This document shows positions 3,562 through 40,489 of a stretch of 43,646 bases of DNA, piece by piece. Source of the stretch: an uncultured Candidatus Saccharibacteria bacterium. Lineage in GTDB: Bacteria > Patescibacteriota > Minisyncoccia > Phycocordibacterales > UBA9973. The stretch spans positions 19,864 through 63,509 of the forward strand of contig CAYHBT010000002.1 of NCBI GenBank assembly GCA_964354935.1. The letters run 5' to 3'. A program made the position numbers and the translations under genes. Numbering within the stretch: position 1 is the stretch's first letter; each line of letters opens with the position of its first letter. The notes beneath the pieces were generated by a model that saw nothing but the letters and a program-made list of their open reading frames with translations, did not search any database and was not told the origin of the DNA.

Positions 3562-4174
3562 TTCAGAATCAAAGATAGATCCCGTTAGAGATCGCGAGGG
3601 CTCGCAGCGACCCTCTATCTCTAACGGGATAGAAGCAATACTTTTTTGGAAAGGCGAACCGATGTCGAGAAAAAAACTCGGAGAAATTTTGAAAACGAGT
3701 GAGGAAGAAATAAATGCTGGTCTGGAAAAATTGAAAGAAAATTTAAACAGTAGGGGAATAGTATTGCAGGAAAACGGAGAAGAACTCGCGCTTGGCACAG
3801 CGCCTGAACTTTCGGAGCTGATTGAGAATCTGCAGAAAGAAGAATTAAATAAAGAACTTTCCAAGGCTAGCTTGGAAACATTATCTATCGTGCTTTATAA
3901 AAACGGAGCGAATAGAGCGGAAATAGACTATATCAGGGGAGTGAATTCCAGTTTCACTTTGCGTGCGCTTTCCATTCGCGGACTGGTGGAAAAAATTCTA
4001 GATCCCAAAGACAGCAGGCGGTATATTTACAAGCCAAGCTTCGAGCTCCTATCTTATATGGGCGTGAAATCAGTGGAAGAACTGCCAGACTTTGGTGAAG
4101 TGAGCGGGTCCATAAACATAGCGGCAAAGAATTTGGAAGAGGAGCAGAAAGAAGAAAATGCAAGCGCAAACTAA
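3551..4174 (+). CDS. scpB: Segregation and condensation protein B
   Basis: IEAILFWKGEPMSRKKLGEIL and a second winged-helix region (LETLSIVLYKNGANRAEIDYIRG). The ATG at 3551 overlaps the scpA stop (ATGGACAATAA); the track ORF start at 3506 is probably an upstream extension. Contains the 48-bp element at 3581-3628. Confidence 0.85.
   Translation: MDNNSESKIDPVRDREGSQRPSISNGIEAILFWKGEPMSRKKLGEILKTSEEEINAGLEKLKENLNSRGIVLQENGEELALGTAPELSELIENLQKEELNKELSKASLETLSIVLYKNGANRAEIDYIRGVNSSFTLRALSIRGLVEKILDPKDSRRYIYKPSFELLSYMGVKSVEELPDFGEVSGSINIAAKNLEEEQKEENASAN
3581..3628. repeat. 48-bp GC-rich palindromic element, family A copy 2 (in frame in scpB)
   Basis: CCCGTTAGAGATCGCGAGGGCTCGCAGCGACCCTCTATCTCTAACGGG. 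Encodes PVRDREGSQRPSISNG. 44/48 identical to copy 1 in gene sense. Confidence 0.85.
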
Positions 4175-5906
4175 ACAATGTCAAAACTGTAAAACAGACT
4201 TCATTATAGAGCCGGACGATTTTGGATTTTATGAAAAGATGAAGGTGCCAGTGCCTACATTTTGTCCGGAATGCCGACGGCAGAGACGAAACGCTTGGCG
4301 GAATACTTTTACTTTGTATTCCCGCAAATGCGATTCCTGCCAAAAATCCGTCATTTCACTTTACGCTCCTACCGCGCCAAAGGACGGGCAAGCTTCCGGT
4401 ATCACTATTTACTGCAACAAATGCTGGTGGAGCGATAAATGGGACGCGAAAAGTTTCGGAGCGGAGTATGATTTTTCTAAACCTTTTTTCACGCAGTTTC
4501 GCGAACTTATCGGCAAAGTGCCACACATTTCTATTGTGAACGACGATGGCATCGCTAGCCTAAATTGCGAATACACGCACGATACTTGGTTTTCAAAAAA
4601 TTGCTATATGGTGTTTTCTTCTTGGCGCATAGAAAATGTTTCGTACAGTTTTTTCATTCTTGCCGGCAAAGATATGATGGACTGTATGAATATCAGGTCC
4701 AAAAATGAATTTTTGTACGAATGTGTGCGTTGCGCTACCTCATATAAATTAACACATTCTCAACAATCAAAAGATTGCATAGAATCATCGTTTCTTGCTG
4801 ACTGCCTAAACTGCTCAAATTGTTTTATGTGTTGCGGGTTGCGCGGAAAAAAATACCATTTTAAAAATAAACAATATTCTAAAGAAGAATACGAAAAAAT
4901 CTTAAAAGATCATCGGTTGGATACTTTTTCTGGAGTTGAAAACACAATAAAAGAATTCGATTCTTTTATTTCTACACAAATTCAACGATATGCTCACAAT
5001 TTTCATAATGATTTGAATGTTATCGGTGAAGAAATTTCTAACTCGAAAAATATAAAAAATTGCTTTGGAATAAAAAAATCAGAAAACTGTCGATATTGCG
5101 ACTTCGGCTCGAACGACAAAGAATGCTATGACCTAGTGATGACAGGGGAATCTTCAGAGTGCTATGAGGTGGCTACTGCTGACCAATCCCAACTGAATCT
5201 TTTTGCTGTTTTTTCGGTGAAAAGCCAAGATGTGCGTTACACTCAGCATTGTCATAATTGCAGGCATTGTTTTGGTTGCGTCGGTCTGCGCGATGCAAGT
5301 TACTGTATTTTTAATAAACAATACACAAAAGAAGAATATGAAACGCTGGTGCCGAAAATAATTGAGCAGATGAACAAAATGCCTTTCGTTGATCGCATAG
5401 GAAATTCCTATGCGTATGGAGAATTTTATCCGATAGAACTTTCGCCGTTTGGCTACAATGAAACTCTTGCCATGGAAGATGTCGCGTTCTCAAAAGAAGA
5501 AGCGCAGAAGAGGGGATTTGGCTGGCAGGACAATATTCAACGCACGACGGGCAAGGAAACGCTCAAGCCTGAAAATATTCCGGAGTCCATAGACGAAATA
5601 GGGGATTCAATCTTAGATGAAGTGCTCGCCTGCATCGATTGCAAAAGAAATTACAAAATTGTTCCAAACGAACTTATTTTTTATCGGAAAATGAAAATCC
5701 CTATTCCGCGCCGATGTTTTTATTGCCGTCATGCGAACAGGCTGAAAAAGAGAAATCCGTTCAAACTTTGGCATAGGCAATGTATGTGTGAAAAAAAGCA
5801 CGCACATCACGAAGAACAATGCGACATAGAATTTGAAACAACTTACGCGCCGGAGCGGCCAGAAATTATTTATTGTGAGAAGTGTTATCAGCAGGAAGTG
5901 TACTAA
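4158..5906 (+). CDS. Cys-rich protein of unknown function with zinc-ribbon modules at both termini (paralog 1)
   Basis: 582-aa ORF. N- and C-terminal CxxC..FY.KM..P.P..C..CR modules and two internal halves, each ending C.NC..CF.C.GLR...NKQY[ST]KEEYE. Clear paralog of 34992-36728. Start overlaps the scpB end. Confidence 0.8.
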   Translation: MQAQTKQCQNCKTDFIIEPDDFGFYEKMKVPVPTFCPECRRQRRNAWRNTFTLYSRKCDSCQKSVISLYAPTAPKDGQASGITIYCNKCWWSDKWDAKSFGAEYDFSKPFFTQFRELIGKVPHISIVNDDGIASLNCEYTHDTWFSKNCYMVFSSWRIENVSYSFFILAGKDMMDCMNIRSKNEFLYECVRCATSYKLTHSQQSKDCIESSFLADCLNCSNCFMCCGLRGKKYHFKNKQYSKEEYEKILKDHRLDTFSGVENTIKEFDSFISTQIQRYAHNFHNDLNVIGEEISNSKNIKNCFGIKKSENCRYCDFGSNDKECYDLVMTGESSECYEVATADQSQLNLFAVFSVKSQDVRYTQHCHNCRHCFGCVGLRDASYCIFNKQYTKEEYETLVPKIIEQMNKMPFVDRIGNSYAYGEFYPIELSPFGYNETLAMEDVAFSKEEAQKRGFGWQDNIQRTTGKETLKPENIPESIDEIGDSILDEVLACIDCKRNYKIVPNELIFYRKMKIPIPRRCFYCRHANRLKKRNPFKLWHRQCMCEKKHAHHEEQCDIEFETTYAPERPEIIYCEKCYQQEVY

Positions 5907-13174: not shown

Positions 13175-14170
13175 ATGAGTACAAAAACAGCCGTCCAGCC
13201 GATAACCAAATATATCCTTCCCTTTCTAGATTACTGCGAAGTTGAGAAAGGGTTATCGAACAACACCCAACGCAACTACGAGCAATATCTCAAACTATTT
13301 GTGGGCTGGCTAAAAAAAACAAATAAAGAAAATCTTTTACCGCACGAGTTAACAGCCGAACATATTTGGGATTATCGTTTGTATTTGGCTCGAACTTATA
13401 TAACTCGTAATGGTGGATATTTGGGTAAGAAATCTCAAAATTATTACCTGATCGCTTTGCGAGCGCTTCTTGATTTTCTCGCCGACCGCGATATTCAAAT
13501 ACTTCCTTCTTCTAAAATAAAATTGGCTAAGCAAAAGACAGACGAGACTATCTCCTTTCTCGATACGCGTGATGTCGAAGCTATGCTAAAGATTCCCGAT
13601 ACAAAAACTCCAGCCGGTCTTCGGGACCGTTCCATAATGGAATTATTCTTTTCATCTGGTATGCGTATTTCGGAATTGGTAGCTCTGGATGCTGACCGCG
13701 TATCCTTCTTGAAGGACAAAAATTCGAAGCGCACCTTTGAACTTTCGATTGTTGGTAAAGGTCGCCATGTACGAACCATCTTCATTTCTCCTCGTGCCGC
13801 GCAGTGGCTACGCACTTATCTCGCATCTCGTAAAGATATGGAGAAGCCACTTTTTGTAAATATAAAATCTGGTGGAAATAAAAATATAAAAAAAGATGAT
13901 GATCATCGCCTCACTAATAGGTGGATACAAAAGATGATTTCAAAATGCGCATTGCTTGCGGGGATTTCCAAAAAAGTGACTCCCCACACGCTTCGCCATA
14001 CTTACGCCACCGATCTTTTGGGTAATGGAGCTGACTTACGAAGCGTACAAGAACTTTTGGGTCACAAGAATGTATCTACCACTCAAATATACACTCATGT
14101 GACCAATAAGGGCCTTAGAGACATCCACGAAAAATTTCATGGCGGAAAGGAAATTGATAATAATAAATAA
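13175..14170 (+). CDS. Tyrosine recombinase, XerC/XerD-like
   Basis: C-terminal HTLRHTYATDLL...LLGHKNVSTTQIYTHV (R-H-R-Y catalytic motifs) and an N-terminal SAM-like core-binding domain. Confidence 0.85.
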   Translation: MSTKTAVQPITKYILPFLDYCEVEKGLSNNTQRNYEQYLKLFVGWLKKTNKENLLPHELTAEHIWDYRLYLARTYITRNGGYLGKKSQNYYLIALRALLDFLADRDIQILPSSKIKLAKQKTDETISFLDTRDVEAMLKIPDTKTPAGLRDRSIMELFFSSGMRISELVALDADRVSFLKDKNSKRTFELSIVGKGRHVRTIFISPRAAQWLRTYLASRKDMEKPLFVNIKSGGNKNIKKDDDHRLTNRWIQKMISKCALLAGISKKVTPHTLRHTYATDLLGNGADLRSVQELLGHKNVSTTQIYTHVTNKGLRDIHEKFHGGKEIDNNK

Positions 14171-17664: not shown

Positions 17665-17704
17665 AGGTACATTGTATTTGAAAAACACTCAAAATGCAAA
17701 TACA

Positions 17705-17756
17705 CCTCACCCGCCTTCGGCACCCTCTCCTTGACAAGGAGAGGGTTAGGGAGAGG
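17705..17756. repeat. Nested-hairpin element, family B copy 1 (at the mrdA 3-prime end)
   Basis: CCTCACCCGCCTTCGGCACCCTCTCCTTGACAAGGAGAGGGTTAGGGAGAGG. Inner stem CCCTCTCCTT/AAGGAGAGGG, side hairpin GCC-TTCG-GGC. Confidence 0.8.
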
Positions 17757-19470
17757 TTCTGAAATATTCTGGAGTATAGATGATCATCCAATCTAAAAGC
17801 TGTCGCATTACTGTGGAAGCATTGACGCTGTTGGTCGTAGGTCCTGCTTCCATCATTATGGTAAAGGCATATTTAGGATTTTTATACGGGAAAAACCCTA
17901 TAACCCAAGAGTTCACTTTATTCTTACTGACTCCAATTTGGGCTGTACCAGTTTTTGCCGCGATTTCAACAAAGGGGACATTTAAAGATAAAGCTGTGCC
18001 ATAAGTGACCGCTTTGCGCATACCTTCGTGAATCGTATCAAAATATTCTTTTTTTATGTCTATGGCAGTCCTTTTTGCTTCCATTGTTTTATCGTCCAGA
18101 ATAAAATGCGGGGTTAAAATATTTCCATAATTAGCAATTGCTGAGACGGCACGCGTCATTTCCATCAATGTGACTTGAAATCCGTATTGCCCGATTGAGG
18201 TATTGTAAGTATCTCCGACGCGCCAAGGGTCTCCTTTAAAATTTTGTATTTTCCATTCAGGACTCGGAATGATTCCCTTTTTTTCATCTGGCAAGTCGAC
18301 TCCAGTGATTTCCCCAATTCCGAAAAGTCTAGCGTATTTTCCAAGATTTAAAATACCCAAACCTTTTTGATCTTCGAACCCCCCGCCAATTTCATAGAAA
18401 TAAATATCAGAAGAAACGGCCAATGCTTCTGTGATATCCGTCCAGCCGTTTACTCTCCAATCTTTAAAAACAGTTTTTTGGTCCGGAAAATAAGGATTTG
18501 GGATTGAAATAGAGCCTGTTGAAAGAATTTTTTTATATCGATCGATTACTCCTTCAGCCAAGGCTCCCAATCCAAAAAAAGGTTTTACAATTGAGCCCGG
18601 AGTATAAAGTCCGGAGACAGTCCTGTCTAAAAATGGTTTTTTCTTATCGTTCAAATAACGATTAATCTTAGTCGCGTCTTTACCTAAAGATAAAATTTCT
18701 GAATCGTATTCAGGAAAGCTTGTAGAGGCTATTATTTCTCCATTTTGTGTGTTCATAATAACGCCGGCTCCGCCTGTAAAATCATTACTTCCAGACAAAT
18801 TTTTAATTATAGTGAATAGCTCTTTTTGTATTCTAGAATCTATACTTATGACAAGATCGCTTCCTTGTTTGGGGCTGTTGATAATATTTTCTGAGTGGGT
18901 GATCCCCCTTGCGTCCACTTCTATTATTTTCGATCCATTTTCTCCTTTTAGTTTTTCGTTGTATTTTTTTTCAAGTCCATCTTTTCCAATAAATTCATTT
19001 TGCCAATAATTTCCCTGCGAATCCTTGGCGGGAGAGCTAACATAGCCGACTATATGTGAAAATCCAGGAGAAGCATAGGCGCGCGCATATACCAAAGACA
19101 GATTCTCTTCAATTTTTTTATTCCACGCTAATTCTTTTTTATTTCGATCATAAATGATACCTCTCTCGGTGAAAATATTTACTTTTTTCAAAATGTTGTT
19201 TTCGCTTCTCTTTCGATAAGTTTCCCCATTTTGTATTTGTAAATATGTAAGTCGAAGACCGAAGATGAGTATTACCAGTAAAAAAGAAATACCAAGAAAA
19301 CTGATATTTTTTTTAGAAATTGGTTTTTCTATTCTACCCTCGAATTGCTGGCGGTTGAAATTTTGTATATTTTTTGAATCAAGAAAAATTTCGTCTGGTT
19401 CGACAAAAGTGTTTTTAATCTGATTTTTTTTTAAAAATTTTCGAAAAGTCATTTGATTTAGTAAAATCAT
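17746..19470 (-). CDS. mrdA: Penicillin-binding protein 2 (class B transpeptidase)
   Basis: 574 aa with an N-terminal TM, PGSIVKP (SxxK) and KTGTA motifs. The last codons and the stop lie inside repeat 17705-17756. Confidence 0.85.
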   Translation of the reverse strand: MILLNQMTFRKFLKKNQIKNTFVEPDEIFLDSKNIQNFNRQQFEGRIEKPISKKNISFLGISFLLVILIFGLRLTYLQIQNGETYRKRSENNILKKVNIFTERGIIYDRNKKELAWNKKIEENLSLVYARAYASPGFSHIVGYVSSPAKDSQGNYWQNEFIGKDGLEKKYNEKLKGENGSKIIEVDARGITHSENIINSPKQGSDLVISIDSRIQKELFTIIKNLSGSNDFTGGAGVIMNTQNGEIIASTSFPEYDSEILSLGKDATKINRYLNDKKKPFLDRTVSGLYTPGSIVKPFFGLGALAEGVIDRYKKILSTGSISIPNPYFPDQKTVFKDWRVNGWTDITEALAVSSDIYFYEIGGGFEDQKGLGILNLGKYARLFGIGEITGVDLPDEKKGIIPSPEWKIQNFKGDPWRVGDTYNTSIGQYGFQVTLMEMTRAVSAIANYGNILTPHFILDDKTMEAKRTAIDIKKEYFDTIHEGMRKAVTYGTALSLNVPFVEIAAKTGTAQIGVSKNKVNSWVIGFFPYKNPKYAFTIMMEAGPTTNSVNASTVMRQLLDWMIIYTPEYFRTSP

Positions 19471-23760: not shown

Positions 23761-24465
23761 TTATTTCTTGTTATTACTTATATCACTTGCGGTAAAACTA
23801 CCCATCTCTGGATTTATCTTTGTTCTTGAGAAATAAAGACGCCTATTATTATTGTTGTAATAAATTTCATCTGTGGTAAAAGAGGATTTTTTGGGACCAT
23901 TTACAATGACTGGTTCAAATCCAAGATTTTGCTTGATTTGAGACGAAAGGAAATTTATTGAATCTAGGTATTGTTGTCGATCATGTTCTGAATCTTCAGG
24001 ATAATTTCCTCCAACGATAACAGCGTCAATCGTCCCTGGAATGCATCTCTCTTTAATTTCAGACAAACTTTTTTCTAAGCCAGATTTAAAATCCTCTTTC
24101 TTTGGATTAAACAAAAAGAAACTTGGATCCTGATGGCTCAAGAATGAGATAGGATTTCCATTTTCCTTTTCTATTCCAGCGACGACTAATCCCGTGCATC
24201 TAAAAAAATCTAAAGAAAATTTATTTAAACTGTCTATTGTAGATATTACACATTGAGCACCTTCGGTCTGTAAAAATTGCTTATCTGCGTTTCCTCTAAC
24301 ATCGTTGTATTTTACATTATGTCCTTCAGGGGGATAATCCTCATCAATAAATAGTCCTATTTCGTCTTGTGTTCCTAGGCACACATAAATGGGCTTTACT
24401 CCCTCAATTAAATGTTTTGAAAGTTTCTTTGCCTCTGGTTGATTTATATTCAATGTTTCATTCAT
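23761..24465 (-). CDS. Uncharacterised protein embedded in the pur operon (orf234)
   Basis: 234-aa ORF with host-like composition. The pattern C-TGLVVAG..(20)..H then IDAVIVGGN then N..L....LGF remotely resembles CheD-type Cys/His deamidases. No firm family assignment. Confidence 0.6.
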   Translation of the reverse strand: MNETLNINQPEAKKLSKHLIEGVKPIYVCLGTQDEIGLFIDEDYPPEGHNVKYNDVRGNADKQFLQTEGAQCVISTIDSLNKFSLDFFRCTGLVVAGIEKENGNPISFLSHQDPSFFLFNPKKEDFKSGLEKSLSEIKERCIPGTIDAVIVGGNYPEDSEHDRQQYLDSINFLSSQIKQNLGFEPVIVNGPKKSSFTTDEIYYNNNNRRLYFSRTKINPEMGSFTASDISNNKK

Positions 24466-30816: not shown

Positions 30817-30880
30817 TTGCGTTAGATCTTGCCTAACGCAACAAAAAACCACAATAGCAACGGCCGTTGCTATTGTGGTT
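30817..30880. terminator. Convergent terminator region (two hairpins)
   Basis: TTGCGTTAG-ATCTTGC-CTAACGCAA (30817-30841), then the perfect 34-bp palindrome AACCACAATAGCAACGG|CCGTTGCTATTGTGGTT (30847-30880). The latter has an A6 tract on one side, which is a T tract for the minus-strand operon. Confidence 0.8.
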
Positions 30881-30891
30881 TAAGGAAGGTT

Positions 30892-32778
30892 TTAATTTTT
30901 AGATAATTCAAGAGCTTTTTTGCCTATGTCTTTTCTGTATTGCATACCTTCAAAAGATATTTTTGAAATTGCTTCGTAGGCTTTATCGAGGGCTTCTTGC
31001 AGGCTTTTGCCCGTCGCGCTGACTCCCAGCACCCGCCCGCCGTTGGTGACTAGTTTTCCGTCTTTTTTGGTTGTGCCGGCGTGAAAGATAATTATATCTT
31101 TTTCTTTTTTCACTTCTTCAATCCCTGTGATAATTTTACCCTTCTCATATTCCCCCGGGTACCCGCCAGAAGCTACGGCGATGTTGCAGGCGGATGTATT
31201 TTCTTTCCATTTTATTTCTAAATCTTTTATTTTTCCATCAATACAAGCATCAAACATGTCCAAAATATCCGTCTCTAAAATTCTCATATATGTCTGTGTC
31301 TCCGGATCGCCGAAGCGCGCGTTGAATTCAAAAACCTTCGGGCCTTCGGCTGTGAGCATTATCCCCGGGTACAAAATTCCAACAAACGGTCTGCCTTCTT
31401 CTCTCATACCCGCCAATGTTGGCGCGATAATTTCTTTTTCAATTTGCGACATCAGCGCTTCGTTCATAAAAGGTAGCGACGCAATGACTCCCATTCCGCC
31501 TGTATTAGGTCCAGCATCGCCATCGAATATGCGTTTATGATCTTGCGAGCTTGGAAACATTTTAAAATCTTTTCCGTCGGAAATTGCGTGAATGGAGATT
31601 TCGGTGCCGGAAAGGTATTCCTCGATGACTACTTCGTTGCCGGAACTGCCAAAAATTTTATCCACCAAGATTTTTTTAAGTGCCTCGAGCGCTTCTTCTT
31701 TTGTTTGCGCTACTGCCACGCCTTTGCCGAGCGCGAGTCCGCTTGCTTTGATGACTACAGGCACCGAACCTTTTTCAACATATATTTTCGCTTTTTCAAA
31801 ATCGGAAAAAACCTCGTATTTAGCCGTTGGGATTTTGTGTCGTTTCATAAAATCTTTGGCGTAAGCTTTAGACCATTCGAGCTCGCTTGCCCCTTTGGTC
31901 GGACCCCAAACTCTTAATTTTTCTTTGTGAAATTCGTCCACTATGCCAAGCGCAAGAGGGTCGTCAGAGAGAACGAGAGTCAGGTCAATTTTTTCTTTTT
32001 TGGCAAATTCTAAAAGCTTGGCGGTTTCAGTTTCTTTTATATCTAAATTAGTTCCCAGCTCTGCTGTGCCGGCGTTGCCTCGCGCAAAAAATAATTCTCC
32101 CGCTCGAGGCGACTGCGCTATTTTCCAGCCGATTGCGTGTTCCCGTCCTCCTCCCGCGCCAATTATTAAAATTTTTTTATACCTCACCCCGCCTTCGGCA
32201 CCCCTCTCCTTGTTAAGGAGAGGGGTTGGGGGTGAGGTCAATTTTTCTAAAACTTCTACATATAATTCGTTTTCTTTTTTCTTTAGTCTGGCATACAGAG
32301 ACTCCACAGTATCGCCATCTTCCACTTTTTCAAAAGTTCTACCCAAGACTGGTCCAAAATCGAAATTCAAAGTCAAAAAATGAATTGAAGAACCGGCAAA
32401 AGTGGATTTTTGGTCTAGGAAATTTTTGATTGCCTTATCGCCATACATTCCTTTGTTCCATAGAGCTTTTGTATTATCAGGATTTAATATCTCTCCATTT
32501 ATTGTATCCGGAATCAAACCCGGGTGTAAATTAAAAATTTTGTTTTCATATTTTATTATCATCATTTCGGGAATTATCTTTTTCCAACCAGCTAGACATA
32601 TGTAGTCTGGCGACACTTTTTCCAATATCGGCATTGGTTCTTCCCTATCCGAAATGACTACAGAAATTTCCGCATTTATTTTCCCTGCATCAATTTCATC
32701 TCTAATTGCCTTGAGGTTTGTTTGAGCGCCTCCTTCGTGAACCAAAATCGCTAACTTTTTTTTATTCTTTTGGGACAT
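30892..32778 (-). CDS. purD: Fused GAR transformylase (PurN-like) / GAR synthetase (PurD)
   Basis: N-terminal ~190 aa has the formyltransferase NLHPGLIP and FDFGPVL motifs. The C-terminal part starts KILIIGAGGGREHAIGW (PurD ATP-grasp). The two halves are joined by repeat 32181-32238. Confidence 0.8.
   Translation of the reverse strand: MSQKNKKKLAILVHEGGAQTNLKAIRDEIDAGKINAEISVVISDREEPMPILEKVSPDYICLAGWKKIIPEMMIIKYENKIFNLHPGLIPDTINGEILNPDNTKALWNKGMYGDKAIKNFLDQKSTFAGSSIHFLTLNFDFGPVLGRTFEKVEDGDTVESLYARLKKKENELYVEVLEKLTSPPTPLLNKERGAEGGVRYKKILIIGAGGGREHAIGWKIAQSPRAGELFFARGNAGTAELGTNLDIKETETAKLLEFAKKEKIDLTLVLSDDPLALGIVDEFHKEKLRVWGPTKGASELEWSKAYAKDFMKRHKIPTAKYEVFSDFEKAKIYVEKGSVPVVIKASGLALGKGVAVAQTKEEALEALKKILVDKIFGSSGNEVVIEEYLSGTEISIHAISDGKDFKMFPSSQDHKRIFDGDAGPNTGGMGVIASLPFMNEALMSQIEKEIIAPTLAGMREEGRPFVGILYPGIMLTAEGPKVFEFNARFGDPETQTYMRILETDILDMFDACIDGKIKDLEIKWKENTSACNIAVASGGYPGEYEKGKIITGIEEVKKEKDIIIFHAGTTKKDGKLVTNGGRVLGVSATGKSLQEALDKAYEAISKISFEGMQYRKDIGKKALELSKN
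32181..32238. repeat. Nested-hairpin element, family B copy 2 (in frame, purN-purD junction)
   Basis: ACCTCACCCCGCCTTCGGCACCCCTCTCCTTGTTAAGGAGAGGGGTTGGGGGTGAGGT, with the same architecture and orientation as 17705-17756. Encodes TSPPTPLLNKERGAEGGVRY. Confidence 0.8.
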
Positions 32779-34195: not shown

Positions 34196-34963
34196 TTATT
34201 TTTTATTTTTTGCGGAAAAGTAATTAACGGCGTTTTTAAAAATCTGCAGTCCGGCGCCCTCTTTTGAAATTTTCTTATTTTTATACCACATCGGATTCTG
34301 ATGAGCAAACATCGCTCTCTCCGGATGAGGCATCATTCCTAGGACCCTGCCATTATACGCCAAAACTCCGGCAATGTCATAGTCTGAACCGTTTGGATTT
34401 TTTTCGAGATTTTGAAATTTACAAATTTCTCCTTTGTCATAATTAAAAGCGATTTCTTTTTTCGCTAGCATTTTTTTGTGTTCTTCCGGAGAAATAACAA
34501 AATGTCCTTCACCGTGCGCGATTGGAAGAGATATTTTTTTAATATTTTTGAGCCAAGGACTCGAACCTTTGACGGAAAGATCGATCCATCTGTCTAGATA
34601 TTTTCCATTTTTATTTTGCATCAAAGCCCCGGGCAAAATTCCAAGATTGGTGATTATTTGGAACCCGTTGCAAATACCGATAAGTAAAGTATCGCGTGAC
34701 AAAAATTCCGCGAGCTCTTTCGATAAATGATTTTTAAATTTATTAGCGTAAGCTTTGCCGCTACCCGTGTCGTCTCCATAAGAAAATCCTCCCGGAAATG
34801 CTATGATCTGGTATTCTTTCAGTATTTTTGGCTTGGCAATTAGGTCGTTGATGTGCACAATATCCGCTTTCCCTCCCGCTGTCTCAAAAGCGAATTTCGT
34901 CTCTTCTTCGCAATTGAGCCCGTATCCGGACATTATTATAATTTTTGGTTTATTTTTTTTCAT
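34196..34963 (-). CDS. purQ: FGAM synthase, glutaminase subunit
   Basis: Class I GATase with GICNGFQ and HGEG motifs; 255 aa. Confidence 0.9.
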   Translation of the reverse strand: MKKNKPKIIIMSGYGLNCEEETKFAFETAGGKADIVHINDLIAKPKILKEYQIIAFPGGFSYGDDTGSGKAYANKFKNHLSKELAEFLSRDTLLIGICNGFQIITNLGILPGALMQNKNGKYLDRWIDLSVKGSSPWLKNIKKISLPIAHGEGHFVISPEEHKKMLAKKEIAFNYDKGEICKFQNLEKNPNGSDYDIAGVLAYNGRVLGMMPHPERAMFAHQNPMWYKNKKISKEGAGLQIFKNAVNYFSAKNKK

Positions 34964-34970
34964 TTTTTCT

Positions 34971-34992
34971 AATATCAGCTATAGCTGATATT
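34971..34992. repeat. Perfect 22-bp palindrome between the Cys-rich paralog 2 stop and the purQ start
   Basis: AATATCAGCTATAGCTGATATT is its own reverse complement. Its last base overlaps the paralog stop codon. Confidence 0.85.
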
Positions 34993-36728
34993 TAATATAT
35001 TTCTTGCTGATAACATTTTTCGCAGTATACCATATCTTGTCTTTCAGGCGCATAGGTTGTTTTGAATTCTACTTCGCATTTTTTCTCTCCGTGAAAATGA
35101 TTTTTTTTATCGCACATACACATCCTTTCCCAAAGTTTCAACGGATTTCTCAGATTAATACGCGCATAGTGCCGACAGTTTGGACACAGTCTAGGTAAAG
35201 GTAACTTCATTCTTTTGTAAAACCTGAATTCTTCTTGAATTATTTTAAAAGCTTCAGTACATTGGTGTTTACATGTGCCACCATGCCCGCAAGCAATAAT
35301 CTTACCTATTATTTCATCTCCAATATCTTTAATGTTGTCAGGTATATCTTTATTTTCTATGTCAATTTTGTAATTTCTTTCTTCTATCTCCTGCCAAGTA
35401 TATCCTTTTTGTAAAGCTTCTTCTTTGGTTAAAGGAAAATATTCTTGCGCGATTGTTTCGTTGTAAGCAAAAGGTGAAAGTTCTGATGGAAAAAATTCTC
35501 CGTACTTATAAATTCTGCTTTGTTTATCAATGAAAGGCATATCTTTCATATGCTTAATTATTTTAGGCAGAAGTTTCTCATATTCTTCTTTACTATATTG
35601 CTTGTTTAAAATGCAGTAACTTTTTTTACGAAGCCCTTCGCAGCCAAATACATTTTTACAATCATGGCATTCCTCGTTATAACGCGCATCTTGATTATTA
35701 AGATTTCTAACCCCGAATGCCACATTATTACTACCAAAACCATGACAATTTTCATATATTAGTTCTGCGTTAAAGCCCAGAAAAGATACATCATAACAAT
35801 CTTTAGATCCATGTCTGCAAAAAAACAAAAATTTTGAATCCTCGGCCTGTCTTGAACTAAAGGCGAAATTTGTATTTCTGGCTTCTGATAGATCGTCGCC
35901 GTCCGAATTTATTGATTTATAAACGCGAGCATAACGATGAGGTAAATCTAGTTCTAACTCTTTTAATTTTTTTAAAAATTCCAAATGTTTCTCGTGACTT
36001 CCTGTATTTTCTTTTATAAATTTATTATAGTTTTCTTTTGAATGTGGTTTATTAAAGATATGATATTGTTTGTTTACTAAACCTACACAACCAAAACAAT
36101 TTATACAGTTTCGACAATCGATCAAATAATAACTTTCAACGCAATCCTGGGAATGATGGCTAAAAAATAGTTTGTTTGTGGTTTTGCATTCAAAAAGCTC
36201 GTAGCCAAATTCAATCTTTTCACAAAAAGATATGTTCATCGAGTCTCGAGAGTCGAAAATTTGATTGCCAAAATAAACTCTCTCGTTATTATGTCCACCA
36301 AATAAAAGATAACATTCTTTAAAATCTATTCCGTAACTACAGTAATCGCTGTTTATAAAATTTGTTTGATATAAATTTGCTCTCGGCACCCTCGTTTGTA
36401 GCATTTTAAATTGTTCAAAAAAAGGCTTAGAAAAATCATAGTCTACACCGTAAGATATGGGGTCCCATTCATCAGAAAGCCAGCATTCTCGGCAATAAAC
36501 CGTGTATAATCTTTTATTATTATATACAGCAAGTACTGATTTTTTACACAGAGCACATTCGCGTTTGTAAAAGACGCGATTGTTGCGGAAAAGTAATCGT
36601 CTTTGGAATCTGCAATCAGGGCAAAATGTCGGAGGTGGCACTTGCATCTTTTCGTAAAAAGAAAAATCATCCGGCTCGATGACAAAATCCTTTTTACAAT
36701 TTTGGCAATTTTTTGTCTCTGATTTCAT
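34992..36728 (-). CDS. Cys-rich protein of unknown function with zinc-ribbon termini (paralog 2)
   Basis: 578 aa, collinear with 4158-5906. The termini are nearly identical at protein level (CQNCKKDFVIEPDDFSFYEKMQVPPPTFCPDCR ... TTYAPERQDMVYCEKCYQQEIY). Sits between purL and purQ. Confidence 0.8.
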   Translation of the reverse strand: MKSETKNCQNCKKDFVIEPDDFSFYEKMQVPPPTFCPDCRFQRRLLFRNNRVFYKRECALCKKSVLAVYNNKRLYTVYCRECWLSDEWDPISYGVDYDFSKPFFEQFKMLQTRVPRANLYQTNFINSDYCSYGIDFKECYLLFGGHNNERVYFGNQIFDSRDSMNISFCEKIEFGYELFECKTTNKLFFSHHSQDCVESYYLIDCRNCINCFGCVGLVNKQYHIFNKPHSKENYNKFIKENTGSHEKHLEFLKKLKELELDLPHRYARVYKSINSDGDDLSEARNTNFAFSSRQAEDSKFLFFCRHGSKDCYDVSFLGFNAELIYENCHGFGSNNVAFGVRNLNNQDARYNEECHDCKNVFGCEGLRKKSYCILNKQYSKEEYEKLLPKIIKHMKDMPFIDKQSRIYKYGEFFPSELSPFAYNETIAQEYFPLTKEEALQKGYTWQEIEERNYKIDIENKDIPDNIKDIGDEIIGKIIACGHGGTCKHQCTEAFKIIQEEFRFYKRMKLPLPRLCPNCRHYARINLRNPLKLWERMCMCDKKNHFHGEKKCEVEFKTTYAPERQDMVYCEKCYQQEIY

Positions 36729-36749
36729 ATATACGCTATAGCTGATATT
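36728..36749. repeat. Second copy (19/22) of the 22-bp palindrome, between the purL stop and the Cys-rich paralog 2 start
   Basis: TATATACGCTATAGCTGATATT shares an exact 15-mer, GCTATAGCTGATATT (36735-36749), with 34978-34992. Confidence 0.8.
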
Positions 36750-36752
36750 GGT

Positions 36753-39674
36753 TTAACTCATACTTTTTGAAAATTTGTGATAGATATCGTGCAATTTTTT
36801 GACAGTACTTTCTATTATTTTTTTACCACCATCTTCAACTATTACTTTTTCATCTTTCATTACTTTTCCTAACTTTGCATAGGAAACTCCTATGCATATT
36901 TTCTCAAAGACATTTATATTTTCCGGCGCGACAGAAACAAGAATTCTACCTTGGCTTTCGGAAAAGATCTTTGTCTCTACAGCCAGCGCCTTAGGCGCTG
37001 GCTGGCTTATATCTATTTTACAGCCGAGCATTCCGCCTAGAGATGCTTTCGCGAGAGCGATACCTAGACCGCCGGAAGTTACAGAAAGCGAAGAAGATAG
37101 TAATTCTTTTTGAATTAATTTTTCGAGTGCAAGATAAGTTTTCAGATTTTTTTCTAAATTTACTTTTGGAACACCATGTTCATCATTCGTTTCTCCCAGC
37201 AAATAAATTATATCATCTGCATTTTTAAATTCCGGCGAAACGGCTTTATTCAAATCAGGCATTACGCTGATTGCCGAGATAAGTAAAGTTGGCGGGATTG
37301 AAATTTCAACCGGATTGCCTTTTTCGTCATAGCCCTTAAAATCGTTGAACATACTGTCTTTTCCGGAGATAAACGGGGTTCCGTAGCCTACTGCATAGTC
37401 GTAGCAGGCTTTTACGGCTTCTACGAGTTGATATAAGCGTTTTGGGTCATTTGAGGAACACCAGCAGAAATTGTCTAAAATCGCTAAATGGGAAAGCGTA
37501 CCGCCCGCGGCGATTATATTTCTAATAGCGGTATCTAGCGCACAAGCCGCCATATGATATGTGCTAATGTCTCCGTAAGAAGGATAAAGCGCAGAAGATA
37601 AGACAACTGCTTTTTTTGAATTTAAAACCGGACGGAAAATTTGCGCATCGGTGTTTATGCGTCCAGCGCCGGAGAGAGGTTTCAAAACAGAAGACGCCTG
37701 CACTTCGTGATCGTATTGTTCGGAGACAAAAGCAAATCCAGAGATGTTTTTATTGGCGAGGAGGGTTTCTAAAGATTTTGTATACACTTTGCCTCTACCC
37801 AACCTCCTCCTACTGTAGGGGGAGGAGAAAGGAGGGGGTAAAATTTCCTCCGTTCTCAATTGTCTTTTCGGCAATCCATTGTGCAAAAATTCCATTTCCA
37901 TATCCATAATTTTTTTGCCACCGTATTCCAAAATAACTTTTCCGGAATTTGTGAATTCCCCGATTACCGTCGCTTCCACTCCGCGACTTTCCATAAGTTT
38001 TTGGAAAGTTTTCCATTTATTTTTTGGAACTGCCAAAGTCATTCGTTCCTGCGATTCGGAAATCCAAATTTCCCACGGCGCGAGACCGGGATATTTGAGC
38101 GGGACTTTGTCTAAAAAAACTTTCACTCCCCCACATTCTTTTGCCATTTCTGCGACCGACGAAGACAAACCACCAGCGCCATCGTCTGTGATGCTGTTGT
38201 ATAAATCTAATTCACGCGCTTCTTTAATTATTGCATCGCTTAATTTTTTCTGTGTTATCGGGTCTCCTATTTGGACTGCTGTGGCTGGAGAAGAGCTATC
38301 AAGTGTCACTGATGAAAAAGTCGCGCCGTGTATTCCATCTAGTCCGACTCTTCCTCCCACCATTACTACATAATCTCCCGCCCTAGCTTTCTTCTCGTGC
38401 ATTAATTTTCCCTTAACTTTGCGAGGTATTAATCCGACGGTTCCAGCAAAGACCAATGGCTTGCCACGATATCGTTCGTCGTATTTTATAAATCCGGAAA
38501 GTGTCGGAATTCCTGAACAGTTTCCACCAACATTGATGCCTTTAATGACTCCGTCCATAATTCTTTTCGAAGAGAGCATCTTCTCCGTTAAATTTTTATT
38601 TCTAAATAATTCTCTTTTATCATTTGGATAGCTAAGACAAAATCCGTATGCGTTCGCCACCGGTTTTGCGCCCAATCCAAAACCAATCGTGTCTCGATTC
38701 ACACCAACGATTCCAGTGATTGCTCCGCCAAAAGGGTCGAGCGCCGAAGGGCTGTTGTGCGTTTCGACTTTGTGTGTAATCAAATAATCTTCATCAAAAA
38801 TTATTCCACCGGCGTTGTCGGAAAAAACAGAAACACAGAAATCGCCGCCCCCGCCACGGCGGGCAAGTTTTTGTTTTCTTATTATATTTGTTGCCTCTTT
38901 TATATATGTTTTATACAAACCGTCCTTTATAACACCTGCCTGTTTCCCTGCGTCAGCAGGAGGCAGTTCAATCGGATTAGCAAAAATAGTGTGCTTGCAA
39001 TGTTCAGACCAAGTTTGCGCCAAAGACTCAAGTTCAATATCGGTGGGGTTTCTTTTCAACTTGGCAAAATACGCTTTTATGGCAAGCATAGAAGCCAAAT
39101 CAAGAGCGAGCGGGCCTCTCCTTTTGCCATCTTCACCCAGTATGCCTTCTGTGCCTATTTTAGTAAGTTCTTCATCTGAAACTTCAAGCGAAATATTTAT
39201 CACAGGAATTTTTTTCTTTAAAATTACTTTTGGAATGATATTTATAAATTCGAATTTTCCGTTTTTTGTTTTAACTATATTCGCTCTTTCAATAAGAGGA
39301 TTGTATAAGGTCAGAGCAAGCTCTTGCGTTTCTTTTAGTCCACCCGAAACAAAAAAAATCTTTGAAGTATATACTTCAAAATGGTCGTTCTTTTTAAGAT
39401 GTAGTAAATCTGTCGCTATCTCTTTGACCGTGTGTCCGACATTATCGGTGACTCCGGGCAAGAATCCTATTTCTATGGCATGAGAAAACCCGCCGACTGG
39501 GCGGGCAAGCTTCCCCAATTCCGGGTACTCGTTGATGTAATAATTTTCCAAAATGGGATTAGTGAGCGCTTCTGCTAATTTTACGAGCTCTTTTTCCGAG
39601 AATTTAGAATCAATGAGATAGGAATCTGCCTTTGCGCTATCATTTTTCGGTATTACAAATATCCGTGAAATCAT
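36753..39674 (-). CDS. purL: FGAM synthase II with extra N-terminal PurS-like domain
   Basis: 973 aa with WSEHCKHTIF and duplicated PurM-like halves. The first ~160 aa resemble the N-domain of large PurL / PurS. Carries at least four GC-rich hairpin inserts. Confidence 0.85.
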   Translation of the reverse strand: MISRIFVIPKNDSAKADSYLIDSKFSEKELVKLAEALTNPILENYYINEYPELGKLARPVGGFSHAIEIGFLPGVTDNVGHTVKEIATDLLHLKKNDHFEVYTSKIFFVSGGLKETQELALTLYNPLIERANIVKTKNGKFEFINIIPKVILKKKIPVINISLEVSDEELTKIGTEGILGEDGKRRGPLALDLASMLAIKAYFAKLKRNPTDIELESLAQTWSEHCKHTIFANPIELPPADAGKQAGVIKDGLYKTYIKEATNIIRKQKLARRGGGGDFCVSVFSDNAGGIIFDEDYLITHKVETHNSPSALDPFGGAITGIVGVNRDTIGFGLGAKPVANAYGFCLSYPNDKRELFRNKNLTEKMLSSKRIMDGVIKGINVGGNCSGIPTLSGFIKYDERYRGKPLVFAGTVGLIPRKVKGKLMHEKKARAGDYVVMVGGRVGLDGIHGATFSSVTLDSSSPATAVQIGDPITQKKLSDAIIKEARELDLYNSITDDGAGGLSSSVAEMAKECGGVKVFLDKVPLKYPGLAPWEIWISESQERMTLAVPKNKWKTFQKLMESRGVEATVIGEFTNSGKVILEYGGKKIMDMEMEFLHNGLPKRQLRTEEILPPPFSSPYSRRRLGRGKVYTKSLETLLANKNISGFAFVSEQYDHEVQASSVLKPLSGAGRINTDAQIFRPVLNSKKAVVLSSALYPSYGDISTYHMAACALDTAIRNIIAAGGTLSHLAILDNFCWCSSNDPKRLYQLVEAVKACYDYAVGYGTPFISGKDSMFNDFKGYDEKGNPVEISIPPTLLISAISVMPDLNKAVSPEFKNADDIIYLLGETNDEHGVPKVNLEKNLKTYLALEKLIQKELLSSSLSVTSGGLGIALAKASLGGMLGCKIDISQPAPKALAVETKIFSESQGRILVSVAPENINVFEKICIGVSYAKLGKVMKDEKVIVEDGGKKIIESTVKKLHDIYHKFSKSMS
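37796..37840. repeat. GC-rich nested hairpin in frame in purL (family C)
   Basis: TACCCAACCTCCTCCTACTGTAGGGGGAGGAGAAAGGAGGGGGTA. Stem CTCCTCCTAC/GTAGG(GG)GAGGAG. Encodes LPPPFSSPYSRRRLG. Confidence 0.65.
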
Positions 39675-39730: not shown

Positions 39731-40489
39731 TTAGAGATTTTTCCAATTGTATTCGAATATTAATTTTTGAGTTTGATAAATTTCCTCATTTTCTATTACA
39801 ATCCCGACCGGATTATCCGCGTTGTCGAGACTGATATGGGCCGTCTTTCCGGCGTAAATAATTTGATATGTTGATCGCAGATTTTCTTTTTTCTTTTTGT
39901 CTAACAATTGTATCCATTTTCTTTCATCAAGACCGATGAGGCTACCTCCTTCACCCAAAGCAATTGTCTTAACTTTAATTTTTCTTCGGATTCTTTTTTT
40001 ACTGAAATCTTTCATAGCCAAGTAGACATTTTTTCTAACAGTCGCCGAAGAGTAAACGAAGTAAGTTTTTTCTTTTACTTTATCCATACTCTTTAATACA
40101 TCTTCCAAAATGTGTCGAATGCCAATTGTACCCTCGTATAATTTGACTGAAGGTTTTCCTCCTTGTGTTTCAAATAGAGTTTTGAATAGAGGCAAGCTTT
40201 CCTCGATATCTTCCTTGTTTTTTTGCAAATCTTCTTGCTTCTTTTCTATGACAGCAAGTAAAGTCTCAGGTCGTTCGGCAATGAAATATTGTTTGGATTT
40301 CTTGTTGTAATAAGAAATAATTCCCATCTTAATCAAAGACTTCAAAATATCATATGTGGTGCCGCGATTCACTTTCGCTTTTTGCGATATCGTCCGCACC
40401 GAAGATGCTCCAAGCTCAATCAAAGCGAGATATACGGCGATTTCTTTTTCCGATAGACCAAAATTCTTAAGAATGACTTGAATCTGCAT
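39731..40489 (-). CDS. TrmB-family transcriptional regulator
   Basis: N-terminal winged HTH LSEKEIAVYLALIELGASSVRTISQKAKVNRGTTYDILKSLIKMGII, typical of TrmB-like regulators; 252 aa. Confidence 0.75.
   Translation of the reverse strand: MQIQVILKNFGLSEKEIAVYLALIELGASSVRTISQKAKVNRGTTYDILKSLIKMGIISYYNKKSKQYFIAERPETLLAVIEKKQEDLQKNKEDIEESLPLFKTLFETQGGKPSVKLYEGTIGIRHILEDVLKSMDKVKEKTYFVYSSATVRKNVYLAMKDFSKKRIRRKIKVKTIALGEGGSLIGLDERKWIQLLDKKKKENLRSTYQIIYAGKTAHISLDNADNPVGIVIENEEIYQTQKLIFEYNWKNL

Follow-up and report, generated by a model that had tools for sequence, protein, structure and literature searches.

We report here on two short dyads that bracket a Cys-rich gene in a purine operon of an uncultured Candidatus Saccharibacteria bacterium. 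The stretch analysed (hereafter the window) comprises 43,646 nucleotides of contig CAYHBT010000002.1, and the gene, cys2 (34992..36728, minus strand), encodes a protein of 578 aa and lies between purL and purQ. Our comparison of the window with related loci (designated by L numbers) showed that the dyad belongs to a family of imperfect palindromes tied to the ends of genes of the same Cys-rich family (Cys-family genes), with fixed orientation to the gene, co-varying arms and optional occurrence. We tentatively propose, with a probability of about 0.42, that the dyads are boundary elements of the Cys-gene unit which are recognised as a stem-loop in the transcript. Genomes of Patescibacteria are tiny and have almost no intergenic DNA, and therefore a sequence that persists in a spacer is informative. 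What deserves attention here is that conserved, oriented imperfect palindromes are specific to the ends of one gene family in this lineage.

Copy 1 of the dyad (34971..34992, minus strand; AATATCAGCTATAGCTGATATT) is a perfect 22-nt palindrome of the form ATATCAGC-TATA-GCTGATAT within the 28-nt cys2-purQ spacer. It begins inside the TAA of cys2, overlapping the stop by 2 nt, and ends 7 nt short of the purQ ATG. Copy 2 (36728..36749, minus strand; TATATACGCTATAGCTGATATT) lies within the 24-nt purL-cys2 spacer, matches copy 1 at 19 of 22 positions and has a hybrid form, reading AATATCAGC-TATA-GCGTATATA on the coding strand. In its context, ACC-AATATCAGC-TATA-GCGTATAT-ATG, the final base of the dyad is the A of the cys2 start codon. 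Both copies had been described in an earlier interpretation of this DNA (the sequence-only reading) and were confirmed in the sequence, as was the 15-mer GCTATAGCTGATATT, which is exact in both copies at a spacing of 1757 nt; with up to two mismatches allowed, no third site of it was found within the window. Three matches of the 15-mer occurred in 0 of 100 dinucleotide shuffles (mean 0.12), and a perfect palindrome with an 11-nt half was reached in 13 of 300 Markov-1 simulations (~4%). A single perfect palindrome is mildly unusual, and the non-random part is the presence of two copies around one gene. By these shuffles and simulations, a chance origin of the pair was rejected as having practically no probability. 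An assembly artefact was rejected as well, because both copies were identical across three independent assemblies (L006, L007 and L206) and contigs of other runs showed no change at either copy, though neighbouring purL codons varied; the DNA contigs of these other runs were fragmentary and frequently broke at the dyad. The sequence-only reading had further considered that the dyad might recur next to paralog 1 of the Cys-rich family or other pur genes, or be a common intergenic motif. Neither was seen in the DNA covered: no further copy was found in the rest of the 63 kb of source genome (the window plus 20 kb beyond), and the window scan gave none at paralog 1, at the other pur genes or in the promoter region. 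As a side observation, the C-terminal coding sequence TGT TAT CAG CAA (CYQQ; 34998-35012), which is conserved in the family, contains TTATCAGC, a near-repeat of the dyad's left arm, which lies 22 nt downstream, and the right arm could pair with either. Since it was not kept in L037, L127 or L140, this near-repeat is probably fortuitous, or else a relic of how the element arose.

In total, 12 dyads were collected from 9 genomes: two each in the window and in L127, and one each in L037, L140, L141, L155, L160, L184, L199 and L207. They share the pattern ATMTMMGC-YATR-GYKKAKAT, with the consensus (ttac)AT-ATMTCAGC-YATR-GCGTAKAT-(gtaa), an imperfect palindrome of about 20 nt. Their length was 20-22 nt, extending to 38 nt in L037, and they were always located in spacers. 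All 12 stood within 60 nt of the start or stop of a Cys-family gene, a zone that makes up 3.7% of the 684 kb examined; Cys-family genes account for about one fifth of the genes in these loci. The dyads of L140, L160 and L199 are located 3' of Cys-family genes, that of L155 between two such genes, that of L184 5' of one, that of L141 at the purL-cys2 junction and that of L207 between another paralog and purQ. In L037 (GC 30%), TTACATATATCAGCTATAGCTGATATATGTAA directly follows the stop of a Cys-family gene of 37-39% identity in a non-purine context, and the Cys-family genes concerned in L140, L155, L160, L184 and L199 likewise lie outside pur operons. L127 has dyads on both sides of cys2, and its purL-cys2 copy (CCAATCTACGCTATAGCGTAGAT) is clearly orthologous (...GAGTTAaaCCAAT... 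against ...GAGTTAggCCAAT...) with copy 2 of the window, from which it differs by a compensated A-T to C-G change.

Most of these members were found by regular-expression searches, made after the flanks of cys2 orthologs had been inspected, and L207 by reading its cys-purQ spacer. L037 was the sole relevant match of an exact scan for the 18-mer core that covered one genome per species in 185,579 species (GTDB genomes). The other 18-mer matches were mostly an unrelated Streptococcus repeat: in loci L009-L123 a high-copy repeat of many species of this genus is centred on the 18-mer TATCAGCTATAGCTGATA, with ...CCTAGGAATTCTATTTC.. and ..AAATCCATTTG... as its flanks, and it swamps any exact search for the Patescibacteria dyad. 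Matches in miaA (L018) and RNase R (L034) were dismissed as coding coincidences (peptide ISAIADI), and those of L053, L061 and others as unrelated hairpins whose core is common by chance. A scan of IMG/VR with the hybrid consensus gave 24 matches, about the chance level, all apparently coding and none by a Cys-family gene. With a covariance model of the family (R1), copy 2 was the best match (41.1 bits; copy 1 scored 37.6 bits), and no members beyond the training set were found over 707 kb.

The dyads occurred in two perfect forms and one hybrid form. The perfect form CAGC-YATR-GCTG was seen in window copy 1 and L037, and the perfect form ACGC-YATR-GCGT in the 5' dyad of L127 and in L155, L160 and L184. 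The hybrid form CAGC-YATR-GYGT was the commonest (window copy 2, the 3' dyad of L127, L140, L141, L199 and L207); its orientation relative to the gene was constant in these six genomes, and the reciprocal hybrid ACGC...GCTG was never found among the 12 dyads. Across the arms, 84% of the cells were paired, four of the eight pairs showed compensatory changes and the outer arm positions co-varied. The covariation score was 0.277 against 0.131 in shuffles, none of 500 of which reached the observed value, and slid controls were 17-61% paired. All three G-U pairs (L140, L155 and L207) were on the coding strand. Because the hybrid dyads fold weakly as RNA, what has been conserved is sequence together with partial pairing, a hallmark of factor-recognised sites and not of hairpins kept merely for stability.

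On the reading that we favour, the two dyads would mark the boundaries of the cys2 unit, one at the 5' and one at the 3' end. The coding strand of the polycistronic transcript would carry the dyad as a small stem-loop in which an internal mismatch or bulge is conserved, and a putative sequence-specific factor would bind it, the zinc-ribbon Cys-family proteins themselves being the obvious candidates. The dyad may then tune Cys-gene expression and its translational coupling to the neighbouring cistrons: copy 2 would cover the cys2 start codon, and purQ initiation would depend on ribosomes finishing cys2, because copy 1 spans the distance from the cys2 stop to 7 nt before the purQ start. Under the simplest history, the hybrid form of copy 2 would be the ancestral form or the consensus, and the perfect copy 1 may be derived from it by quasi-palindrome correction of one arm against the other; the perfect forms would thus be the derived ones and the "degenerate" copy 2 the typical one. 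Intercistronic and translational-operator hairpins are known, for example the MS2 replicase operator and the malE-malF stem-loops. Like them, the dyad would place a small mismatched or bulged hairpin over a start codon (copy 2) or from stop to start (copy 1); unlike them, its hybrid forms are thermodynamically weak, and the role proposed here is putative. The suggestion in the sequence-only reading of a repeated RNA hairpin before two consecutive cistrons was retained only in altered form, as an element of the Cys gene family, for copy 1 folds into a good RNA hairpin (-10.3 kcal/mol, z score -3.4) and copy 2 does not (-1.7 to -4.2 kcal/mol, with a z score of -0.07 at -4.2). No match at the gathering score was obtained with the Rfam covariance models over the window. 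Intrinsic terminators are G+C-rich hairpins with a U-run behind them on the transcribed strand, and this reading was rejected also for the coding strand, where AGAAAAAAUG comes after copy 1; a terminator was called on the antisense strand only, and copy 2 was not called. If the dyad is indeed a protein-recognised stem-loop, it would offer a handle on the function of the Cys-rich family, such as RNA or DNA binding or autoregulation.

However, several observations weigh against this reading. The hybrid dyads, although the commonest, fold weakly as RNA (-1.7 to -4.3 kcal/mol), and stability alone is therefore not the selected property. Fewer than 10% of the Cys-family gene boundaries carry a dyad, and at many orthologous junctions the stop and start codons overlap and leave no spacer, so the dyad is dispensable and a selfish element fits equally well. 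Palindromes were present in the 3' flanks of 44% of Cys-family genes and of 43% of other genes; Cys-family genes are not richer in 3' hairpins. Arm covariation is equally expected for a symmetric DNA operator or a single-stranded DNA hairpin. Few cases stand behind the strand asymmetry (6 of 6 orientations; 3 versus 0 G-U pairs), which could have been produced by common descent. Furthermore, the RNA runs of the same samples contained none of the locus, and the dyad-binding factor is a putative one.

A selfish or neutral miniature palindrome without host function, comparable to repetitive extragenic palindromes (REP) or the Rickettsia palindromic elements (RPE), is an explanation that we consider unlikely, albeit far from negligible. 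Such an element would have been inserted into the spacers beside the conserved 5' and 3' coding ends of Cys paralogs, or carried from one to another by short-tract gene conversion, and the two copies of the window would be two insertions or two conversions. The sporadic and dispensable occurrence of the dyad agrees with it, and quasi-palindrome correction would account for the perfect forms. In addition, other palindrome families at Cys-family gene ends behave alike, with cores such as TTTTGCAAAA, CTGCTATCGCAG, GACGGCCGTC and CTAGCC..GGCTAG. One element was found on both sides of a gene in L139, L140, L157, L172 and L188 (of cys2 in L139 and L140), and bracketing by a common repeat of at least 14 nt was observed for 9 of 122 Cys-family genes versus 3 of 600 mismatched controls. 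Between paralogs less than 50% identical, spacers were identical over 54 nt in L165 (5767-5816 and 7528-7577) and over 36 nt in L188, which implies recent homogenisation or a spread of spacer elements independent of the genes. The conserved termini of the paralogs share 48-117 nt at 70-83% identity, enough for gene conversion.

The window itself contains two further palindromic mini-elements, each in two copies, and these also speak for selfish spread. The first is a 51-nt element, TCCCGTTAGAG...CTCTAACGGGA, whose copies at 2468-2518 and 3579-3629 are on opposite strands and 92% complementary. It is in-frame in two unrelated genes, those of an M1 aminopeptidase (aa 87-103) and of ScpB (aa 25-41), and nearly the same peptide, PVR(S/D)REGSQRPS(T/I)SNG, appears in both because the element is palindromic; in this it resembles the RPE. 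Half of the element was also observed upstream of cys2 in L128. The second, CCTCACC..GGCACCCCTCTCCTTGNNAAGGAGAGGGG..GGTGAGG, is located at 32182-32236 and 17703-17757. One copy is in-frame in the linker of a 628-aa purN-purD open reading frame (ORF), with the peptide ...LTSPPTPLLNKERGAEGGVRY..., and the other directly follows a penicillin-binding protein gene. This element seems to fuse purN to purD, which are separate genes in L001, L004 and L207-L209, and relatives of it were seen in L126, L135, L138, L165 and L192. Such extra palindromes in the window and its relatives indicate that small palindromic elements are an active feature of these genomes.

Nevertheless, several properties of the dyad are at odds with a selfish element. 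REPs are high-copy and adjoin many unrelated genes, whereas only 2 copies of the dyad exist in the 63 kb and every known copy adjoins a single gene family that makes up a minor share of the genes present; a dispersed family of low copy number would still be compatible with these 63 kb. The dyad core and its asymmetry were kept across genomes in which the identity of the flanking genes is 37-50%, and this speaks for purifying selection. At each window junction the paralog homology is on one side only, and simple conversion therefore fails for both copies. No Y1 transposase, either of the REP-associated type (RAYT) or of the IS200 type, was seen among the Pfam annotations of any locus viewed, although no systematic search was made. 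REPs are described as short (20-40 bp) imperfect palindromes outside genes (PMC3733652). Like REPs and the bacterial interspersed mosaic elements (BIME) of Proteobacteria, the dyad occupies tiny intercistronic spacers, is conserved in sequence, optional and oriented, and may form stem-loops in mRNA. REPs have a GTAG or CGTC tetranucleotide at one end and an associated RAYT gene; in the dyad no such terminal tag was noticed outside the stem, and a GTAG occurs inside the right arm (GCGTAGAT) in L127, L160 and L199 and not in the window copies. As to the RPE, reportedly described by Ogata et al. in Science in 2000, the dyad resembles them as a palindromic mini-element spread in a reduced genome and common to related genomes, but RPE are 100-150 bp long and inside ORFs, and the dyad is 20-22 nt and strictly intergenic. 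If the dyad should be selfish after all, a REP/RPE-like phenomenon would be added to the Candidate Phyla Radiation (CPR).

The purL-purQ slot of related genomes bears on how cys2 came to its position. In L208 and L209, purL runs into purQ with an ATGA overlap, and neither a gene nor a palindrome lies between them; identity to the window is 84% for PurQ and 76% for PurL in L208, and 82% and 74%, respectively, in L209. In the equally close L207, the slot holds another paralog (555 aa, 42% identity to cys2) followed by a dyad of the family, and in L234 it holds a HAD hydrolase gene and cys2. In 13 of 22 distinct related loci, purL and purQ enclose an ortholog of cys2 with 71-79% identity. Within the slot, cys2 is conserved as strongly as PurL (70-76%) and PurQ (81-84%) and more so than PurF (54-57%). 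In many of these loci the cys2 start and the purL stop overlap (ATGA) without any repeat around the gene; cys2 orthologs lacking the dyad were seen in L001, L004, L133, L135 and L185. The different filling of the slot in equally related genomes, together with the palindrome-free empty site, supports the interpretation that cys2 would be an old, conserved addition to an otherwise seamless purL-purQ junction. Hence, the part of the sequence-only reading that took cys2 for an inserted cassette stood insofar as a gene was added to a seamless junction, but the presence of cys2 in 13 of the 22 loci is not that of a recent arrival. As side observations, a slot gene, often translationally coupled by ATGA, was seen in L001-L004, L124-L141, L185, L207 and L234, and a HAD-family hydrolase that accompanies it in L234 is probably also beside it in L126, L128 and L130. 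That one operon junction can be empty, filled by cys2 or filled by another paralog in equally related genomes is of interest in itself, and the conserved placement raises the question of a role of the Cys-rich gene linked to PurL and PurQ.

The sequence-only reading had also proposed that an ancestral palindrome of the purL-purQ junction was split or duplicated, as a target-site duplication, when the gene was inserted. The exact 15-mer on both sides of the gene and the direct adjacency of purL and purQ in some close relatives are what this would predict. However, the single palindrome without insert expected at related junctions was looked for and was absent from L208 and L209, and because these empty junctions hold only the 4-nt ATGA overlap and no palindrome, duplication or splitting of one is refuted. 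Moreover, cys2 orthologs in the same slot have no repeats in many related loci, an outcome that the sequence-only reading had itself named as refuting it, and the dyad family also flanks Cys-family genes far from pur genes. L127, at a protein identity of 73%, has the same bracketing, which makes the repeats an old and maintained feature and not a fresh scar. We regard this origin as scarcely credible.

The dyad may alternatively be the hairpin recombination site of a mobile gene cassette, similar to attC or to the stem-loops of promoter early stem-loop (PeSL) cassettes, with purL-purQ as one landing slot. We hold this to be improbable. The variable filling of the slot in equally close relatives and the tandem arrays of up to five paralogs with conserved spacers are consistent with it. 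It is also known that attC and IS200/IS605 hairpins are oriented imperfect palindromes with conserved mismatched bases, as the dyad is, and the hybrid dyads join the left arm of one perfect form to the right arm of the other. On the other hand, neither an integron integrase nor an HUH enzyme stands beside any dyad; no integrase was found within 10 kb of one, and the sole tyrosine recombinase of the window (13175-14170) is 20 kb off and Xer-like by its domains. A reciprocal crossover, looked for through attL/attR-like hybrid pairs, does not fit either, given that the window combines a hybrid with the perfect form of copy 1 (P1) and the reciprocal hybrid is missing. The two sites of L127 differ in their centre (TATA versus CATG), and the cys2 orthologs are stably syntenic and strongly conserved.

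Integron attC sites are 57-141 bp in length, have RYYYAAC and GTTRRRY cores and need the IntI integrase and attI, with a Pc promoter. The dyad resembles integron cassettes in that an oriented imperfect palindrome comes after an ORF without a promoter, arrayed ORFs are bracketed, sites of the same host are alike and slot occupancy varies; but at 20-22 nt it is far under the attC size, it has no GTTRRRY core, and the supposed cassettes are all paralogs of one family. The PeSL cassettes of T4-type phages, reportedly described by Arbiol, Comeau and Krisch in Genome Biol Evol in 2010, resemble the dyads in that short conserved stem-loops flank small ORFs in variable regions, serving both expression and, as homology, the recombination by which these ORFs are shuffled. 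PeSLs, however, contain a promoter, belong to phages and flank unrelated ORFs, whereas the dyad is on a bacterial chromosome, beside one gene family and with no evident promoter. By analogy, the dyad appears to work most like REP/BIME or cassette-boundary stem-loops (attC, PeSL), and yet it would seem to lie outside both REP and attC, because its copy number and distribution differ from those of the former and its size, core and lack of an integrase set it apart from the latter. In a bolder version, to which we give little chance, the Cys-family genes of Paceibacteria would be hairpin-bounded cassettes that are inserted, exchanged and arrayed at dyads, possibly by a recombinase that is the Cys-family protein itself. 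If this were true, insertion would be precise between stop and start, leaving operons such as purL-purQ undisrupted, and a new integrase-independent cassette system of an ultra-small bacterial lineage would exist around a protein whose predicted fold is unmatched in the PDB. As a recombination site, the dyad would represent a new route for moving genes into operons without breaking them.

As a further alternative, the dyad could be a duplex DNA operator of a dimeric regulator, TrmB-like or other, acting as a roadblock or controlling an internal promoter for cys2 and purQ; the sequence-only reading had named a repeated operator before two consecutive cistrons as an alternative. Two half-sites of 8 nt around a centre of 4 nt make the dyad a pseudo-palindrome, a symmetric dimer would lead one to expect covariation of the arms, and hybrids that fold weakly would still be acceptable as operators. 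Its TATCAG-N6-CTGATA is similar to the motif of TrmBL1 in Thermococcales, the Thermococcales glycolytic motif (TGM), which reads TATCAC-N5-GTGATA, and the operon begins with a TrmB-family gene in the window and in L001-L003. However, the promoter region that precedes trmB and purL has no copy, nor has any other pur transcription unit, and the dyad occurs without an adjacent TrmB gene in L207 and in non-pur contexts in L037, L140, L160 and L199. Conversely, L001-L003 have the TrmB gene (86% identical) and no dyad. The palindromy of 15-19 bp per arm in L037 and L184 exceeds a dimer footprint, and the dyad keeps one orientation relative to the gene. On these grounds of position and co-occurrence, an operator for purine control or for TrmB was rejected, and an operator of any kind appears distinctly improbable to us. 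Whichever of the remaining cases holds, the purine-regulation reading should be dropped.

The gene family that the dyads accompany is itself of interest. At least four CxxC...CxxC zinc ribbons are located at the two ends of the cys2 product, and its centre is Cys/Gly-rich and repetitive. Each of the two paralogs in the window had about 8000 scored close homologs, the best 120 for cys2 having 68-81% identity; the family is very large, multi-copy and Patescibacteria-specific. Paralog 1 has 45% identity to cys2, and among 80 metagenome loci as many as five diverged paralogs were seen in tandem. No family match for cys2 was obtained in Pfam, NCBIfam, PDB sequences, PADLOC or PHROGs. A first AlphaFold2 (AF2) model on a shallow alignment, with a predicted local distance difference test score (pLDDT) of 51, was unusable; a second one on 79 sequences had a pLDDT of 79 and a predicted template modelling score (pTM) of 0.78. 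With this model, Foldseek found nothing in the PDB and only isolated zinc ribbons in BFVD. A large lineage-specific family without annotation in the libraries searched thus has one member with PurL-like conservation between the genes for the subunits of formylglycinamidine ribonucleotide (FGAM) synthetase.

The window is AT-rich bacterial DNA, placed by its protein homologs in Patescibacteria (Paceibacteria / Nomurabacteria). Genes for peptidoglycan and for division are present, and the de novo purine pathway is complete. The apparent operon on the minus strand has the order trmB-purL-cys2-purQ-purF-purND. A promoter-like site (40524-40496, minus strand) lies upstream of its first gene, which encodes a TrmB-like helix-turn-helix regulator (39731..40489, minus strand) and has no dyad inside or upstream. 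It is followed by purL (36753..39674, minus strand; 973 aa), for the FGAM synthetase subunit, and, beyond cys2, by purQ (34196..34963, minus strand), for the glutaminase subunit; the purQ start at 34963 is backed by the conserved N-terminus MK(N)KKPKIIIM of its relatives. A strong intrinsic terminator with a 16-bp stem and a T-run (30846..30881, minus strand) after purN-purD forms the 3' end of the operon that holds both dyads. Paralog 1 (4158..5906, plus strand; 582 aa) comes behind scpA and scpB, and neither of its sides has a dyad.

Some minor features of the purine genes were also noted. PurL has an N-terminal extension of about 280 aa that includes the FGAR-AT linker domain. Its score fell short of the NCBIfam cut-offs, for the small PurL model as well as for the large one; in appearance it is a large PurL without the glutaminase domain, PurQ being separate, and no separate purS gene was noticed in the window. 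A 234-aa ORF between purE and purH (23761-24465) had no Pfam or NCBIfam match, and a 244-aa gene between purN and purD in L209 is likewise unannotated. Finally, the TAA stop of purL (36726-36755 region) is in frame with cys2, and the eight sense codons between them (ACC AAT ATC AGC TAT AGC GTA TAT) are made by the dyad, so that read-through of this single stop would yield a PurL-Cys2 fusion.

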